The notes under the pieces: generated by a model
What the model saw: the letters and a program-made list of their open reading frames with translations, nothing else
Databases searched by the model: none
Told to the model about the DNA's origin: nothing
Made by a program: the position numbers and the translations under genes
Origin: a virus
Length of the DNA: 64,000 nucleotides
IMG/VR virus record: IMGVR_UViG_3300010885_031189
Location: 1 to 64,000 of that record
Reading direction: 5' to 3' (one strand)
Part shown: positions 3,042 to 41,405 of the stretch, piece after piece
Numbering within the stretch: the first letter of the stretch is position 1
How the letters are laid out: the number at the start of each line of letters is the position of its first letter

Positions 3042-3049
3042 GATAAATA
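3042..3049 (+). promoter_or_regulatory. Late promoter-like GATAAATA
   Basis: Matches the T4-type late -10 box (TATAAATA) just before ORF 3055; a gp55-like sigma is encoded in this window. Confidence 0.55.
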
Positions 3050-4104: not shown

Positions 4105-5007
4105 ATGCCATTTCTTGGATCATTTTCAGGTACTTTCGCAAAACGAAGTGGTGGACAATCATCCCTACTAATTGAAGTATTACTTGTTGCTGGTGGCGGT
4201 GGCGGTGGCGGTGGAACTTATGGTAATGCAAACGGTGGTGGTGGTGCAGGTGGATTTTTATACGCGGCTAGTCAATCAATTCCACACGGTAGCTATGTAG
4301 TGATGGTTGGAGGTGGCGGTGCAATGGGAACGGCTGGTGGAAATGCGTCCATTTCTGGTTCTGGAATGTCGTCTATTACTGCGATTGGTGGTGGTCGAGG
4401 CGGTGGCGGATCGTCAGGTGATGCCACCACTGGCGGGTCAGGCGGCGGCGCTAAAGGTGCCGGTAGCAACGGCAATGGATTTCCTTGGGGAGTGGGAATA
4501 AATGGACAAGGAAATCGTGGTGGTAATGGAGATGCCTGGGCATCGGGTGGACGAGTCGGTGGTGGTGGTGGTGGTGGTGCTAGTGGTGTGGGAACAGATG
4601 GAGGTCCTCCAGGAGGGAATGGTGGACCAGGATCACCCAATCCAATAGCTAGTTCTACGGTTGGACAACTTAATACTGGTATATACTATTTAAGTGGCGG
4701 TGGTGGTGCTGGCGGTTCTGATTGGGAACATCGAAATGGTTATGGTGGTATTGGGGGTGGTGGTAATGCAGGAGTATCTGGAACAGTCAATACTGGCGGC
4801 GGCGGCGGCGGATCGACTACTAATGGAAGTACTTATTCAGAAGGCTCTGTAATAACAGGTCCTGGTGGCTCAGGCGTTGTTATCATTCGTTATTCATCTG
4901 CATTTCCTGCATTATCATCAACATCTGGTTCGCCCAGCATTGTAGTAGCCAATGGATATCGTACATATACCTGGACTACTACAGGATCATATTCACTAAC
5001 TTATTAA
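4105..5007 (+). CDS. Glycine-rich domain protein (putative fibre/adhesin)
   Basis: VLLVAGGGGGG...GGGGAGG...GGSGVVIIRY pattern typical of phage glycine-rich domains. Confidence 0.75.
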   Translation: MPFLGSFSGTFAKRSGGQSSLLIEVLLVAGGGGGGGGTYGNANGGGGAGGFLYAASQSIPHGSYVVMVGGGGAMGTAGGNASISGSGMSSITAIGGGRGGGGSSGDATTGGSGGGAKGAGSNGNGFPWGVGINGQGNRGGNGDAWASGGRVGGGGGGGASGVGTDGGPPGGNGGPGSPNPIASSTVGQLNTGIYYLSGGGGAGGSDWEHRNGYGGIGGGGNAGVSGTVNTGGGGGGSTTNGSTYSEGSVITGPGGSGVVIIRYSSAFPALSSTSGSPSIVVANGYRTYTWTTTGSYSLTY

Positions 5008-5024
5008 GTTATGCAAACAACAGG

Positions 5025-5120
5025 ACATCCTTAGGACCGTGGTAGTTACTACCATGTAGATGTGGCCGGCTGCTGGCCTGAAGAGTAACTATTCGCTACA
5101 GTGAAATTCAAAAGTGAGCA
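5025..5120 (+). ncRNA. Candidate structured RNA, family not assigned
   Basis: GC-richer intergenic segment with nested stems ACATC/GATGT, CGTGGTAG/CTACCATG, GGCC/GGCC, TGAA/TTCA and ACT/AGT. Confidence 0.55.
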
Positions 5121-5130
5121 ATTATTTTCC

Positions 5131-5772
5131 ATGAACGACTTACACTTAACTGATAATTCACTTGACCCCATTGGGTACTTCAATAAACCAATAGGTAAAC
5201 TACTGTTTATTCCAACAGCTAGTGATATAAATCTGTTTGACCAAAACGGTTATGATCTTACTGATCTTGAAAAACATTATTATAGGTCAAATCAAACCTC
5301 AATGCAACCTCATCGGTATCGTACTGCAGCTAAATCAACTTGGATGACTCAAGCTGAAAATAAAATTTCTGGCGCAGTATTAAATCATGCCATGCTATTA
5401 CAGCGTAATGGGTATCAAGGTGAGGCACTTAAACAAATGGAATACTGGGCAAAAACTCTACCATTAGTATATAAAGTAGCTAAAATCCGTCCTAAATGGG
5501 GATTTGATTTCAGTATGGACTATGTTGATAGTAACGGAAATACATTTGAAGTTCTTCACTATGAATATGACCTATTTGATTATCAACAAGTACAGGATAA
5601 ATTAAACAAATATCAACCCCAATTCTTGAACTGTGATTGGGACGATGCTGCTAAAAGTATATTGGCACATAAGGATAAATGGTTTCACTTGGATTTCTTC
5701 CCCCAATCCAAATGGAAATGTGATTACTTTGGGATTGACAGCGAGAACTTCGGTCACGTTATCTGGTCTTGA
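5131..5772 (+). CDS. Hypothetical protein
   Basis: ORF track gives GTG at 5101, which lies inside the predicted RNA structure; ATG at 5131 is preferred. Confidence 0.65.
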   Translation: MNDLHLTDNSLDPIGYFNKPIGKLLFIPTASDINLFDQNGYDLTDLEKHYYRSNQTSMQPHRYRTAAKSTWMTQAENKISGAVLNHAMLLQRNGYQGEALKQMEYWAKTLPLVYKVAKIRPKWGFDFSMDYVDSNGNTFEVLHYEYDLFDYQQVQDKLNKYQPQFLNCDWDDAAKSILAHKDKWFHLDFFPQSKWKCDYFGIDSENFGHVIWS

Positions 5773-5775
5773 GTA

Positions 5776-5804
5776 TTGACTTAACCAGTCAATTACTGTA
5801 TAAT
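5776..5804 (+). promoter_or_regulatory. sigma70-type promoter
   Basis: TTGACT-N17-TATAAT. Confidence 0.8.
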
Positions 5805-5830: not shown

Positions 5831-6091
5831 ATGACAGCACGAATGTTTAGTGGCGATCAAAAAATCCGTCTCGTTCAAATCATTAATGAAGGTATCAATG
5901 TTCTCCAGGAAGTTGAAGACTTGACTGCCGGACTTAATGAAACCATTAAGGCTATCGCTGAGGAAATGGAAATCAAACCAAGTATCCTGAAGAAAGCAAT
6001 CAAAATTGCATCCAAGAGTACTCTAGGTGAAACTAATCGTGATAACGAGGAATTGAACACCATCTTGGAAACTGTTGGCCGAACTCTTTAA
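5831..6091 (+). CDS. dsbA: DsbA-like double-stranded DNA-binding protein
   Basis: 86 aa helical protein (IKAIAEEMEIKPSILKKAIKIA) resembling the T4 DsbA/GapR-like family, just upstream of the DNA polymerase. Confidence 0.6.
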   Translation: MTARMFSGDQKIRLVQIINEGINVLQEVEDLTAGLNETIKAIAEEMEIKPSILKKAIKIASKSTLGETNRDNEELNTILETVGRTL

Positions 6092-11104: not shown

Positions 11105-11686
11105 ATGGCAACTATAATAACAACAAAGGGAGCAACCGGAGCTACTGGTGTCCCTGGACCGAGGGGTGTGGCAGGATCTGTTGGACCTGCCGGAGTTGGA
11201 CTAAAGGGTTCCACTGGTGCTGGTGCTACTGGAGCCACTGGTATTCCAGGATCACCAGGTGGTGCTACTGGTGCAACAAGTATTATTCCTGGTGCTACTG
11301 GAGCCACTGGTATTCAGGGTATTACTGGTATTACTGGGGCCACTGGACTATTAGGTGCTACTGGTGTAATGACAGAAATGATATACGTCCTGGGTAATGC
11401 AGGATCAACATTTACACCAAATTATAGTCTGGGATCTATCCAATCATTGACTGCTAATATGAATTTTACATTATCAGTCCCAAGTAACATCCCAAATGGT
11501 GGGTCATTAACATTGATAATAACACAAGATGCTACCGGCTCCAGGCTAATGACAGCAAATACTGCATATAAGTTTGCAGGTGAAGGATTCAAGACGTTAA
11601 GTACCGCTGCAAATTCAATTGACATGATAAATATTTTTCGTGCTAGTTCAGCATATTATGTTACATTAACAACCGGGTACAAATAA
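11105..11686 (+). CDS. Collagen-like (Gly-X-Y) fibre protein
   Basis: GAT/GIT/GPA triplets over the N-terminal ~85 aa, followed by a beta domain similar to the C-terminus of ORF 3358. Confidence 0.8.
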
Positions 11687-15469: not shown

Positions 15470-16153
15470 ATGTCATTTAATAAAACAAAAACAAATCCTG
15501 AATTGGGACTACAAGTACACGAATATCTAGTTAAAATGGGAGTTGAGACTCCCACTAATCTTAATGGATTAAGTCGCACTGATAAGATTGAAATCATTGA
15601 AACTCATATGAAGAAAATCATGGAGACTCTAGGATTAGACTTATCTGATGATAGTTTAACAGAAACTCCAAAGCGTGTTGCTAAAATGTATGTCAATGAA
15701 ATATTTTGGGGGCTTGATTATGAATCATTCCCAAAATGTACAACAGTTGATAACAAGATGAAATACAACGAAATGGTTGTAGAACGAAATGTTAATGTTC
15801 AAAGCAATTGCGAACATCATTTTGTAATCATTGATGGTCTTGCTACAGTTGGATATGTTCCCAAAGATAAAGTATTGGGACTAAGTAAAATCAATAGAAT
15901 TGTAGAGTATTTTAGTAAGCGTCCTCAAATTCAAGAACGATTGACTGAACAGATTTTCCATACATTGCAATTCATTCTAGATACAGAAGATGTTGCGGTA
16001 ATGATTGATGCTCAACATTATTGTGTAAAATCGCGTGGGGTAGAGGATACAGGTAGTTCTACTGTTACTACACGATTGGGTGGTGGATTCAAAACTGACC
16101 TGGCCGCCCGTACTGAATTTTATCAAATAGCTAGACAAGGTTGTGCAAGATGA
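15470..16153 (+). CDS. folE: GTP cyclohydrolase I
   Basis: ETPKRVAKM, SNCEHHF, GLSKINRIV, RPQIQERLT and HYCVKSRGV motifs. Confidence 0.97.
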   Translation: MSFNKTKTNPELGLQVHEYLVKMGVETPTNLNGLSRTDKIEIIETHMKKIMETLGLDLSDDSLTETPKRVAKMYVNEIFWGLDYESFPKCTTVDNKMKYNEMVVERNVNVQSNCEHHFVIIDGLATVGYVPKDKVLGLSKINRIVEYFSKRPQIQERLTEQIFHTLQFILDTEDVAVMIDAQHYCVKSRGVEDTGSSTVTTRLGGGFKTDLAARTEFYQIARQGCAR

Positions 16154-16822: not shown

Positions 16823-17095
16823 ATGAATAAACAAACCCAAGAAGTAATGTCAATTCTGGCAGAAGAATGTGCTGAAGTTATTCAAGCTATTTCTAAGTGC
16901 CAACGATTTGGCATTGACAATTTAAAGCCGGGTAAACCAAAAACTAACAGAGAACATCTTGAAGAAGAGATTGGTGATCTATTGGCTATGGTAGATATCC
17001 TACATGAACTAGACATTGTTTCATGGACTAACCTTGATGAGGCCAAAGAAGCTAAGATTGAAAAATTGAAGAAGTGGTCAACAATTTATGAGTAA
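16823..17095 (+). CDS. MazG-like nucleotide pyrophosphohydrolase
   Basis: EECAEV...EEEIGDLL (ExxE...ExxD) motif; ATG 16823 follows SD GAGGT. Confidence 0.8.
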   Translation: MNKQTQEVMSILAEECAEVIQAISKCQRFGIDNLKPGKPKTNREHLEEEIGDLLAMVDILHELDIVSWTNLDEAKEAKIEKLKKWSTIYE

Positions 17096-17954
17096 AATTA
17101 AAGTAAGCGAACTATTTTACAGTATCCAAGGAGAAGGCCGTTTCATGGGAGTGCCAAGTGTATTCCTAAGAACTTTTGGATGCAATTTCACTTGTGGTGG
17201 ATTTGGTATGCCTCGCGGTGAATTAAGTCAAGAGCGTATCAAAGTTGCCGCATTAGATGCCTTCGGTCCATACTCTAATTACAAAGAACTACCACTTGTG
17301 AGTACAGGTTGTGACAGTTATGCATCCTGGGATCCTGCATTCAAGCATCTTAGTCCTATGCTTGACACTAACACTATTGCTGATAGCATTTGTGAAATGT
17401 TGCCCTTCAAGGAGTGGCGTGATGAACATTTAGTTATCACGGGTGGAGAACCATTATTGGGGTGGCAACGGGCTTACCCAGATTTGATTGAGCATCCAAA
17501 GATGAGTGGGCTAAATGAAATTACATTTGAGACTAATGGAACTCAGCCGTTAACTGACGAATTTACCAAGTACCTACAGACATGGAATCAACGCCAATAT
17601 CCGCATGGTCCTGGTGGAGAAATTACATTTTCAGTCAGTCCTAAACTACCCTGTAGTGGTGAGAAATGGGAAGATGCTATCTGTACTGACATTGTACGCA
17701 GTTATGAAAATATTGGATATGCTTATCTAAAATTTGTAGTTGCTACTGAAGAAGATGCACAAGATGCCTTGAAGGCTACTGCTGAATATAGAGCTGCAGG
17801 GTTTAAAGGTCCTGTTTATCTAATGCCAGTTGGGGGTACGGAAAAAGTTTACGAGATGAACAATCGTAATGTAGCATTATTTGCGATTAAGCATGGACTG
17901 AGATACAGTGATAGACTTCAAGTCCCACTCTTCAAAAATGAATGGGGTACGTAA
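17088..17954 (+). CDS. queE: 7-carboxy-7-deazaguanine synthase (radical SAM)
   Basis: ELFYSIQGEG, FLRTFGCNFTC...GCDS, ITGGEPL, FETNGT and SVSPK motifs. Confidence 0.93.
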   Translation: MSKIKVSELFYSIQGEGRFMGVPSVFLRTFGCNFTCGGFGMPRGELSQERIKVAALDAFGPYSNYKELPLVSTGCDSYASWDPAFKHLSPMLDTNTIADSICEMLPFKEWRDEHLVITGGEPLLGWQRAYPDLIEHPKMSGLNEITFETNGTQPLTDEFTKYLQTWNQRQYPHGPGGEITFSVSPKLPCSGEKWEDAICTDIVRSYENIGYAYLKFVVATEEDAQDALKATAEYRAAGFKGPVYLMPVGGTEKVYEMNNRNVALFAIKHGLRYSDRLQVPLFKNEWGT

Positions 17955-25029: not shown

Positions 25030-26130
25030 ATGGCTATTGTTACTGAAAATCGCACTGTCACTACTACTGAAGCTCGTCGCTCATTGCTGCGTTGTTTCGC
25101 AAAGCAACGCCCAGTATTTCTCTGGGGTCCTCCTGGAATTGGCAAGTCAGATTTGGTATCTGGCATTGCCAATGAGCTTGGCGCAGTCATGATTGACTTG
25201 CGGCTGAGCCAAATGGACCCCACTGACATTCGCGGGATTCCATTCTATAATAAAGAAATCAACAAGATGGATTGGGCAGCACCAATTGAATTGCCTGATG
25301 AAGAATTCGCATCAAAGTATCCATTGGTTGTTTTGTTTCTTGATGAATTGAATGCGGCTCCTCCAGCAGTTCAAGCTGCCGCATATCAGCTTATCCTGAA
25401 TCGTGCAGTTGGCAAGTATCGTATGCCCGACAATGTTGTTCTGGTTGCGGCTGGCAATCGTGAAAGTGACAAGGGTGTTACTTTCCGCATGCCTAGTCCA
25501 TTGGCAAATCGGTTTGTCCACTTGGAAGTTCGTGCTGACTTTCCAAGTTGGGAGCATTGGGCTGTGCAAAACAAAATCCACAAGGATGTGGTTGGTTACT
25601 TGGCTTTTGCTAAGCAGGACCTGTTTGACTTTGATCCACGATCTAGCTCTAGGTCCTTCGCTACTCCACGTTCTTGGGCATTCGTGAGTGAATTGCTTGA
25701 TGACAATGACAATGATAGCAGCACTACTGATCTGGTAGCAGGTACAGTTGGTGAGGGCATGGCAGTCAAGTTTATGGCGCATCGGAAGATTTCTGGTCAG
25801 ATGCCCAATGCTACTGATATTCTGGCAGGCCGTGTCACGGAATTGAAGATCAAAGAAATTTCTGCGATGTACTCGCTAACTGTTTCTTTGTGCTACGAAT
25901 TGAAAGAGGCTTACGAAAAGTCTGTTGGTAGCAAGCAAGAAAAGTTTAACGAAATGGCAGATTACTTCTTCCGTTTCATGATGGATAACTTCACAACTGA
26001 ATTGGTTGTGATGGGAGCCAGGGTCGCTATCACAACATATGGCATCCCATTCGTTCCAAACAAGCTGAAGAATTTTGATGAATTCCATAAGCGTTTTGGA
26101 AAGTATGTTGTTGCTGCATCAAGCAAGTAA
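25030..26130 (+). CDS. MoxR-type AAA+ ATPase
   Basis: GPPGIGKS, LFLDELN, AAGNR and LANRF motifs. Confidence 0.92.
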   Translation: MAIVTENRTVTTTEARRSLLRCFAKQRPVFLWGPPGIGKSDLVSGIANELGAVMIDLRLSQMDPTDIRGIPFYNKEINKMDWAAPIELPDEEFASKYPLVVLFLDELNAAPPAVQAAAYQLILNRAVGKYRMPDNVVLVAAGNRESDKGVTFRMPSPLANRFVHLEVRADFPSWEHWAVQNKIHKDVVGYLAFAKQDLFDFDPRSSSRSFATPRSWAFVSELLDDNDNDSSTTDLVAGTVGEGMAVKFMAHRKISGQMPNATDILAGRVTELKIKEISAMYSLTVSLCYELKEAYEKSVGSKQEKFNEMADYFFRFMMDNFTTELVVMGARVAITTYGIPFVPNKLKNFDEFHKRFGKYVVAASSK

Positions 26131-26135
26131 AATAC

Positions 26136-26156
26136 AGGGGCTACGGCCCCTTTTTT
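26136..26156 (+). terminator. Intrinsic terminator
   Basis: AGGGGC-TACG-GCCCCT followed by a T run. Confidence 0.85.
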
Positions 26157-26232
26157 GTTGCATTTTTGTAACAACTTGCTTGGTGTTTTTGAACATCTAT
26201 GCTATAATGATTACTTACAAACAGGAACTAGT

Positions 26233-27495
26233 ATGACAACTACAATTACTGACAAAGAGAAATCTGTCACTATCACCAATCCAAAGATTGATGCATTGGC
26301 CCGTGAAAAACTGGTTACAGCCCGAGTTGGTCTTTTGCTCAAAGCTAGTTTTTTTGGTAATTTGGCAACACGCTTGAAATTGCTTAATGCTGATGATTGG
26401 TGTGCTACTGCAGCAACTGATGGTCGCCATTTCTATTACAATTCTGAATTTATTAATTCACTCAGCCTAACAGAATGTGAATTTCTTTTTGGGCATGAAG
26501 TTTTGCATGTAGTGTATGATCATATTGGACGGCGCGAAGATCGTAATCCTATACTTAGTAACATTGCTGCTGACTATTGTGTCAACCAGGACCTGATTGA
26601 TTACAACATTGGTCAGCGCATTACCAAAGTTAAGATTCTGTATGATCGTAAATACAAAGGCATGAGTTTTGAAGAAGTGTATGATGATTTGTATAAGAAT
26701 GCAACTAAGATCAACATGCAGGATCTGTTTGATCAAATCCTTGATGAGCATATTGGTGGTGATGCTGATGGTGGTGACGGAGTGGGTGAGGGTGATGGAC
26801 CAGGATCTGCAAAGAAGAAAAAGCCTACGCTATCTCAAGAGCAACTGAAAGAGATTAGGGATGAGATCAAAGAAGCAGTACTTCAAGCTGCACAGGCAAG
26901 TGGTGCTTGCAATCTCCCGGCTGGTGTTCAGCGTTTGATTTCAGAAATGACTGAAAGCATCATTAACTGGCGTGAGTTGTTGCTTCAACAAATTCAAAGT
27001 ACTATCAAGCAAGATTATAGTTGGATGCGTACTAGTCGGCGAAGCTGGCATATGGATGCTGTTATGCCTGGAATGATTCCAGGGGATACAGTTGATGTTT
27101 GTATTGCAATTGATACATCAGGGTCTATTAGTGAAAAAGAGCTAAAGATTTTCTTGAGTGAAATCAAGGGTATCATGGAAAGCTACACTGATTATAAGAT
27201 TCATCTGTGGTGTTTTGACACGGCCGTACACAATCCGCAAGTGTTCAATCAAGAGACTATGCATGACATTCTGGCATATGAACCAAAGGGTGGTGGTGGA
27301 ACTGATTTTGATGCCAATTGGACTTTCATGAAAGACAATCAGATTGAACCTAAGAAATTGATTGTGTTTACTGATATGTGTCCATTTGGAAGTTGGGGTG
27401 ATCCTGACTACTGTGATACAGTTTGGATTTCTGTAATGTCTGATACTATTGCACCATTTGGAATCACTGCCAAGTACGAAGACTCCCTGAAATAA
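26233..27495 (+). CDS. Metallopeptidase-like (HExxH) plus VWA domain protein (DUF2201-like), MoxR partner
   Basis: TAATDG, HEVLH, IDTSGS (MIDAS), GGGGTDF and VFTD motifs; ATG 26233 follows SD AGGA. Confidence 0.88.
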   Translation: MTTTITDKEKSVTITNPKIDALAREKLVTARVGLLLKASFFGNLATRLKLLNADDWCATAATDGRHFYYNSEFINSLSLTECEFLFGHEVLHVVYDHIGRREDRNPILSNIAADYCVNQDLIDYNIGQRITKVKILYDRKYKGMSFEEVYDDLYKNATKINMQDLFDQILDEHIGGDADGGDGVGEGDGPGSAKKKKPTLSQEQLKEIRDEIKEAVLQAAQASGACNLPAGVQRLISEMTESIINWRELLLQQIQSTIKQDYSWMRTSRRSWHMDAVMPGMIPGDTVDVCIAIDTSGSISEKELKIFLSEIKGIMESYTDYKIHLWCFDTAVHNPQVFNQETMHDILAYEPKGGGGTDFDANWTFMKDNQIEPKKLIVFTDMCPFGSWGDPDYCDTVWISVMSDTIAPFGITAKYEDSLK

Positions 27496-36739: not shown

Positions 36740-36747
36740 TATTTATC
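36740..36747 (-). promoter_or_regulatory. Late promoter-like GATAAATA
   Basis: Upstream of the gene starting at 36718. Confidence 0.55.
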
Positions 36748-41397: not shown

Positions 41398-41405
41398 TAT
41401 TTATC
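41398..41405 (-). promoter_or_regulatory. Late promoter-like GATAAATA
   Basis: In the 20-nt gap between the two giant structural genes. Confidence 0.55.

Follow-up and report, generated by a model that had tools for sequence, protein, structure and literature searches.

A structured RNA of giant lake phages with conserved loops complementary to ribosomal RNA

Many uncultured giant lake phages carry a short RNA of three hairpin domains, the stems of which covary while its loops are almost invariant and antisense to ribosomal RNA. The known means by which phages take over translation are proteins and tRNAs, and to our knowledge no phage or bacterial RNA has been described that recognises rRNA itself by base pairing. 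The RNA reported here is real, widespread among giant lake phages and undescribed in the literature and catalogues searched. Its complementarity to host rRNA is statistically supported at the level of sequence and without precedent in the literature searched, where queries on phage RNAs antisense to rRNA and on the loop sequences returned nothing relevant; the RNA probably serves the phage for direct pairing with the RNA of the ribosome. Judged from the sequences, this antisense relationship of the conserved loops is the most telling property of the element, and it was absent from the first-pass annotation of this DNA. The comparisons described below establish the structure, conservation, strand, copy number and complementarity of the RNA.

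The window, by which we mean the whole stretch of 64,000 nucleotides that was analysed, comprises the first 64 kb of a 98-kb IMG/VR record (IMGVR_UViG_3300010885_031189), estimated at 28% of the genome. The DNA polymerase of the phage is 44–48% identical to those of Sinorhizobium phage Phosso, Agrobacterium phage Atu_ph07, Xanthomonas XaC1 and Serratia BF, a similarity that places it, on the evidence of this one protein, among the jumbo relatives of T4. The placement agrees with the presence of ATAAATA late-promoter-like words before many genes.

Covarying stems and near-invariant loops

The element occupies most of a 123-nt intergenic spacer between two co-oriented ORFs (Table 1). The covariance-model match extends from 5017 to 5121 and corresponds to an RNA of about 105 bases, within a family that ranges from 80 to 111 nt. 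Its architecture consists of three successive hairpin domains (5017–5120), namely P1 with or without P1a, P2 and P3/P4; P1a is missing from the short members of the family. Every stem that the first-pass annotation had drawn was recovered at 5025–5119, in the positions it had assigned, and the ATG of the downstream ORF (5131) sits 11 nt past the end of the tail.

Table 1. Coordinates of the RNA element and its flanking ORFs in the window
Feature	Position	Strand	Sequence	Remarks
Upstream ORF	4105–5007	+		glycine-rich, tail-fibre-like; Pfam Gly_rich_2, E = 1.9e-18; phrog_2295; stops 9 nt upstream of 5017, where the model begins
5′ leader, single-stranded	5017–5024	+	consensus (U)AAAGAAC	semi-conserved; in many cases shares bases with the stop codon that precedes it
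P1 helix	5025–5029 with 5059–5063	+	ACATC with GATGT	encloses the conserved CCUUAGGAC and the optional P1a
Unpaired segment	5029–5037	+	CCTTAGGAC	
Conserved segment	5029–5040	+	CCUUAGGACCGU	exact antisense, 12 nt, of E. coli 23S 1919–1930 (3′ strand of helix 69 and junction to helix 70)
P1a, optional 8-bp hairpin	5038–5045 with 5049–5056	+	CGTGGTAG, loop TTA, CTACCATG	one G–U pair
P2 hairpin	5064–5067 with 5075–5078	+	GGCC, loop GGCTGCT, GGCC	99.2% paired; GC, CG and AU swaps
Segment in P2	5067–5077	+	CGGCUGCUGGC	exact antisense, 11 nt, of 16S 517–527 (530 loop)
P3	5079–5082 with 5107–5110	+	TGAA with TTCA	85.9% paired; all four Watson–Crick pair types used; encloses P4
P4	5088–5090 with 5100–5102	+	ACT with AGT	97.4% paired
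Loop 3	5091–5099	+	ATTCGCTAC (RNA AUUCGCUAC)	5092–5099 exact antisense, 8 nt, of 23S 1930–1937
3′ tail, invariant	5111–5119 / 5111–5120	+	AAAGTGAGC / AAAGUGAGCA	3′ boundary of the element
Downstream ORF	5131–5772	+		conserved hypothetical, 213 aa; no SD site

By folding energy the element is ordinary. Its MFE of −27 kcal/mol corresponds to z = +0.30, with 118 of 200 shuffles folding equally well or better, and the minus strand gives z = −0.15, neither strand being more stable than shuffles when folded as a single sequence. Comparison with its relatives, however, clearly sets it apart from chance. In an alignment of 98 sequences, itself fitted to the covariance model, 84.9% of the cells at modelled pairs are paired compared to 57.4% in shuffles, and the covariation score amounts to 0.627 compared to 0.187, neither value being reached in any of 500 shuffles; sliding the partners by one to three columns reduces covariation to 0.02–0.07. 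Fifteen of the 16 modelled pairs vary on both sides. Covariation among homologues was one of the checks that the first-pass annotation had proposed, and compensatory changes indeed keep the stems across 139 distinct homologues; in P1, for example, they include ACAC/GUGU, ACUCG/CGAGU and AUUUGG/CCAAAU. Stems are thus 85–99% paired with two-sided changes, whereas the loops and the 3′ tail hardly vary: conservation is 90% or higher for CCUUAGGA, GGCUGCU and AAGUGAGC, and about three quarters of the members contain AUUCGCUAC.

The transcribed strand can be read from the same alignment. Across the helices, G–U and U–G pairs (76) outnumber A–C and C–A oppositions (23), and all instances are co-oriented with the flanking genes, from which it follows that the plus (gene) strand is the one transcribed into RNA. 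A minus-strand reading, in which the product would be a sense mimic or decoy of rRNA, is rejected on both counts. A pseudoknot between the tail and loop 3, which the first-pass annotation had considered, is disfavoured and has to be rejected as a family feature, the tail being the same in variants that carry another loop 3. It would comprise 6 bp, two of them G–U (counted by hand), and lies beyond the reach of covariation because both partners are invariant.

The family was assembled by two routes. Loci gathered via the neighbouring 213-aa protein (L002–L081) already showed the element with compensatory stem changes, and a pattern scan of IMG/VR added at least 120 further loci (L082–L200). Because the scan pattern included the words CCTTAGG, GGCTGCT and AGTGAG, their invariance in L082–L200 is by construction; L002–L081 are free of this bias and conserve the same words equally well. 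A covariance model built from 14 sequences returned 144 matches, of which 139 are distinct, with one match per locus, so the family is abundant, with at least 139 distinct copies in IMG/VR phage contigs. A search of the 98-kb record for extra copies left a single real one, and two complete genomes with terminal repeats, of 353 and 355 kb, hold two copies and one copy, respectively. The second copy in the 353-kb genome (G001, 76943–77017; L329, 1500–1575) is divergent, scoring 33.7 bits, and with CCUUAAAC as loop 1 and GGUCGCUACC as loop 3 its complementarity to 23S rRNA is reduced.

Outside the virus records one genuine copy was encountered, on a 14.5-kb MAG contig labelled Lishizhenia; the scan of bacterial and archaeal genomes employed an overly loose pattern, and nearly all of the 120 matches listed are fortuitous. 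Five cultured jumbo relatives (Phosso, Atu_ph07, XaC1, Serratia BF and Vibrio 2.275.O) gave no covariance-model match under stricter filters, and blastn searches of GenBank phages with the 1.2-kb region or the motif yielded nothing real.

Complementarity of the loops to ribosomal RNA

The complementarity was noticed post hoc, and was then tested on the sequence of the E. coli rrnH operon, which serves as the rRNA reference throughout. The three exact antisense matches of the window listed in Table 1 all fall in invariant loops, and that of loop 3 covers 23S 1929–1937 in most members. Across the family, 136 of 139 members are antisense to 23S rRNA over 9 nt or more without mismatch inside 1917–1937, and 138 of 139 have such a match inside 16S 517–529. 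The longest exact antisense match per member measures 10–15 nt in all 139, and the sense orientation gives nothing comparable. P1a contains AGUUAC, which is complementary to the 5′ strand of helix 69 in 23S rRNA, and GUUA(C/U) is found in most of the members that possess P1a. The most extensive complementarity occurs in variant-2 members, which carry CUACCUUAGGA(C)CGUUAU.GUUAC; here 22–23 of 24 nt are antisense to 23S 1909–1933, a stretch that spans most of helix 69 plus the junction.

Statistically, the complementarity to 23S rRNA exceeds chance and that to 16S rRNA is marginal. In local alignment to antisense 23S the window scores 32 and a variant-2 member 36, and none of 500 shuffles reaches either value; the score of the short form is reached by 13 of 500 (p ~0.03) and that of the third variant by 5 of 500. 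The 16S match alone is reached by 17–95 of 500 shuffles, and sense-orientation controls are not significant. When the three longest antisense matches are summed, 5 of 3000 shuffles reach the value of the window and none of 3000 that of another member (L060). Two further comparisons carry little weight: a control with random phage DNA as the target was flawed by a pool that contained the motif itself, and RNAduplex against whole rRNAs, a test poorly suited to the question, returned long imperfect duplexes (z −0.4 to −2.1) that are indistinguishable from those of shuffles.

The arrangement of the complementary words is informative in its own right. Of 38 variant-2 members, 30 have the complement of GGUAG (23S 1929–1933) directly adjoining loop 1, whereas all 91 variant-1 members have it in loop 3, the order being permuted. 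Its retention in two layouts argues for selection on the target rather than for shared descent of a layout or of a captured sequence. A rare third variant of loop 3, UUACGCCA, is antisense to 23S 1971–1978, approximately 35–50 nt downstream of the other 23S targets, and this proximity likewise argues for selection on the target over an inherited captured sequence. Searches of E. coli rRNA produced no convincing complement for loop 3 of variant 2, AGUCGUGC, nor for the invariant tail, the best match of which is 7 nt long (23S 1099–1105).

The helix/loop 70 region of 23S rRNA, to which these complements point, is located at the subunit interface, is single-stranded, can be reached in the free 50S subunit but not in the 70S ribosome, and is needed for subunit association; it is also the target of MazF-mt6 and MazF-mt3 (PMC5408214).

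Genomic context

The context of the RNA favours a self-contained module. Among 137 instances, no conserved sequence or promoter-like signal was found upstream of the position equivalent to 5017, and the stop codon of an unrelated ORF mostly lies within about 10 nt of the element. From the lack of a conserved upstream promoter we infer that the RNA is probably co-transcribed with the late (tail-fibre) genes that precede it. The neighbours differ on both sides among members, and three situations recur downstream. In about 60% of the instances an SD-less ATG lies 2–30 nt past the tail and opens the reading frames of many unrelated proteins; SD-less starts are common throughout this phage. The RNA otherwise leads into a promoter of the sigma-70 or MotA-box type, behind which lies an SD-led gene of about 86 aa, or into a bidirectional terminator with convergent genes, and these two situations together account for about one third of the instances. 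Terminators follow the RNA in few members only, where they constitute the bidirectional ends of the convergent genes. The downstream proteins (144, 213, ~215 and 355–430 aa, among others) are unrelated to each other; one of about 235 aa we take, from our own reading of its N-terminal sequence, to resemble a fatty-acid desaturase.

The 3′ boundary is sharp. In three relatives (L002–L004) the RNA is 100% identical to that of the window, and identity with L002 stops exactly after GAGC. Straight after the tail, and before the same start codon, L002 (2737–3000), L003 and L004 carry an insertion of 265 nt, which opens with the hairpin CGCATTTC-TGA-GAAATGCG; the 213-aa protein next to it is 95% identical to that of the window. 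The varied downstream context and this insertion speak against the RNA being a leader or riboswitch of the 213-aa gene. The first-pass annotation had allowed for the segment being translated as part of the downstream ORF, but it is not translated. Homologues of the downstream protein start at ATG 5131, a close relative has quite different DNA directly upstream of the same ATG, and an in-frame GTG at 5101 is not kept as a start codon among the homologues.

Relatives of the 213-aa protein are encoded in 285 viral stretches and share many invariant Trp, Asp and His residues. Many loci with the gene have no RNA match within 3 kb, and the gene is hence not a constant neighbour of the RNA. The protein matched no Pfam or PHROG family, and Atlas leads stay below 0.9 and are to REase-fold toxins only. 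Its AlphaFold2 model is confident (pLDDT 85.6, pTM 0.81), has no Foldseek match and a best VIA Z of 3.7, and suggests that the protein may represent a new fold.

Just past the 213-aa gene, a near-consensus sigma-70 promoter (TTGACT-17-TATAAT, 11/12; 5776–5804) drives an SD-led gene of 86 aa (5831–6091; phrog_12534/phrog_639, transcriptional regulator). In many relatives the equivalent of this promoter, or a TGCTT MotA-box-like version of it, directly follows the RNA. T4-late-promoter-like (G)ATAAATA words are located at 3042–3049, 36740–36747 (−) and 41398–41405 (−), and similar ATAAATA words precede the ORFs starting at 11105, 51690 (−) and 52117 (−); they lie only 5–25 nt upstream of the SD-less starts of structural genes, and such a word also follows the RNA in many relatives. 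Their total count is not above chance (7, with 7.07 expected), but judging by their positions late mRNAs may have very short leaders or none.

Elsewhere in the window, a gene for an AAA (MoxR-like) ATPase is followed by one with DUF2201_N metallopeptidase and VWA-like domains (25030–27495). Residues 468–509 (1465–1590) of ORF 64–2178 show a sub-threshold Pfam match to ribosome modulation factor (RMF), for which the cut-off is 27.9 bits; the whole protein scores 17.4 bits (E = 0.0048) and the piece taken alone 22.2 bits (E = 1.5e-4). The RMF-like piece is a lead only, and would give this phage a second element directed at the ribosome.

Possible function of the RNA

We give an even chance to the reading that the element is a loop-presenting antisense RNA that pairs with the large-subunit rRNA of the host. 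It would act as a 3′-UTR, or as a small RNA processed from the late-gene transcript, and its exposed loops would nucleate base pairing with host rRNA in the manner of loop-presenting antisense RNAs. Loop 1 (CCUUAGGAC) and loop 3 (AUUCGCUAC) would engage adjacent 23S stretches, 1919–1930 and 1929–1937, at the base of helix 69 and in helix/loop 70, and the P2 loop might pair with the 16S 530 loop. The RNA would most likely bind large subunits while these are free or immature, or else nascent 23S rRNA, since the 23S region concerned is reachable in the 50S subunit but not in the 70S ribosome and is needed for association; such binding could hold back subunit joining or maturation, or mark particles for phage use. 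Pairing in vivo and its consequence are what we infer from the complementarity. Several observations speak against pairing with rRNA: in the mature ribosome parts of the target, namely the stem of helix 69, are paired; no convincing rRNA complement accounts for the tail or for loop 3 of variant 2, two conserved blocks at the least; and as the phage needs working ribosomes, a plain inhibitor would have no obvious advantage.

Short and stable antisense RNAs that carry their recognition bases in hairpin loops are exemplified by CopA/CopT of plasmid R1 and RNA I/RNA II of ColE1, and loop-displayed complements are the way in which natural antisense RNAs start pairing. The phage RNA resembles these systems in that its recognition bases are unpaired in fixed loops and its stems vary and covary, in the YUNR-type words of loops 1 and 3 (CUUA and UUCG), and in the loop-nucleated duplex that it would be expected to form with its target RNA. 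CopA and RNA I are, however, encoded opposite the target gene, fully complementary to it and directed at an mRNA or a primer, whereas the phage RNA would act in trans through several short complements in permuted order, with host rRNA as its apparent target. Much like trans-acting sRNAs derived from 3′-UTRs, it lies right behind a coding gene, has no detectable promoter of its own, is sometimes followed by a terminator and displays seed-like segments; the seeds of known sRNAs pair with the translation-initiation regions of mRNAs, whereas those of the phage RNA are complementary to 23S helix 69–70 and possibly the 16S 530 loop. The region of the ribosome is the same as that targeted by MazF-mt6 and MazF-mt3, reachable in the free 50S subunit and not in the 70S ribosome, where the action of MazF blocks 70S formation. 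The two toxins are protein endoribonucleases that cut UUCCU at 1939–1943 (PMC5408214), while the phage RNA is complementary to the sequence just 5′ of this site, with no cleavage implied.

A structured RNA of this kind could also present its loops for another job altogether, such as protein docking, tertiary contacts, the processing or 3′-end stabilisation of late operons, or a new type of self-cleavage, the rRNA match being incidental or a relic of captured rDNA. We regard this as fairly unlikely. The tail and loop 3 of variant 2 would fit it well, being invariant and without rRNA complement, as would the position of the element flush behind the upstream stop codon, which together with the missing conserved promoter recalls a 3′-UTR or processing element; a terminator after the element in some genomes and the marginal 16S match point the same way. 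Against these stand the antisense similarity to 23S, which beats 500 of 500 shuffles and reaches 22–23 of 24 nt, the complementing of one 23S stretch in two different layouts, and a frequency of one copy per 350 kb that is unlike that of a general terminator or processing signal; for self-cleavage in particular, no match to any known ribozyme family was obtained. The rRNA pairing might alternatively serve in cis, by tethering the terminating ribosome or its subunits for a restart on the next gene. Calicivirus TURBS motif 1 and BYDV-like 3′ cap-independent elements offer an analogy, as they too are viral, display an rRNA-complementary stretch on a local structure and lie between or after ORFs. 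These elements are eukaryotic, complementary to small-subunit rRNA and strictly cis-acting on a nearby start, whereas the phage RNA is mainly complementary to the large subunit and often has no downstream ORF. Such a tether would account for the complementarity itself, for the upstream stop codon mostly within about 10 nt and for the SD-less ATG shortly past the tail in about 60% of the instances. Tight spacing is nevertheless expected in a compact phage genome, and the frequent SD-less starts of this phage require no special device. About one third of the instances lead instead into a promoter with its own SD-led gene or into a terminator with convergent genes, and in L002 the identical RNA lies 265 nt from the ATG, which together make the tether quite improbable.

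The first-pass annotation had recognised a real and ordered multi-stem RNA of no assignable family and had offered ribozyme, riboswitch and small RNA as candidates. The RNA itself stands and, of the three, the small RNA fits best; a riboswitch, or any ligand- or protein-sensing leader that controls the 213-aa gene, is largely refuted by the context and we hold it to be highly improbable. Its attractions are a tail that ends 11 nt before an ATG without SD site in the window, and an aptamer-like multi-stem shape with invariant unpaired bases. Across the family the downstream genes are nonetheless unrelated, many members precede a promoter or terminator, many loci of the 213-aa gene are without the RNA, and a close relative has 265 nt inserted behind it; there is no covarying expression platform and no SD site to sequester. 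The guanine-derived ligands that had been put forward (preQ0, CDG or GTP) fare no better, for the RNA occurs once or twice per complete genome and, where mapped, not beside 7-deazaguanine genes. A GTP cyclohydrolase I (E = 2.5e-61) and a weak radical-SAM match, at 15470–16153 and 17088–17954, are consistent with a 7-deazaguanine cluster in the window, about 10 kb from the RNA and not linked to it. Rfam, to which the first-pass annotation had pointed, assigns no Rfam 15 family to the window at gathering thresholds. At E up to 10 (4900–5250) it finds only a chance snoZ119 outside the element (15.3 bits, with a 70-bit cut-off), and no known self-cleaving ribozyme class (hammerhead, twister, pistol, hatchet, HDV-like and others) is matched. 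ARAGORN detects 0 tRNA or tmRNA genes in the window, and no boxes of rRNA-modification guides (box C/D RUGAUGA and CUGA, or H/ACA) are conserved in the family consensus. An H/ACA-type guide was rejected on the ground that two 23S complements in permuted order are unlike a pseudouridylation pocket.

If the loop-presenting antisense RNA does pair with host rRNA, it would constitute a new way of controlling ribosomes. The 23S helix 69–70 and the 16S 530 loop line the decoding and subunit-interface region, and a bolder version of the same reading, which we think unlikely on the sequences at hand, holds that the RNA would be a natural anti-rRNA device on both sites that either sequesters or re-programmes subunits by itself or guides a phage nuclease or modifier to them. 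Such a device would be the first instance of RNA-guided targeting of bacterial ribosomes by a virus. As the RNA is short and its proposed target universal, these ideas are testable on E. coli ribosomes despite an uncultured host, and the RNA could serve as a natural template in the design of RNA-based ligands of the ribosome. Should the rRNA idea fail, the element still represents a well-supported new class of structured RNA in giant phages.
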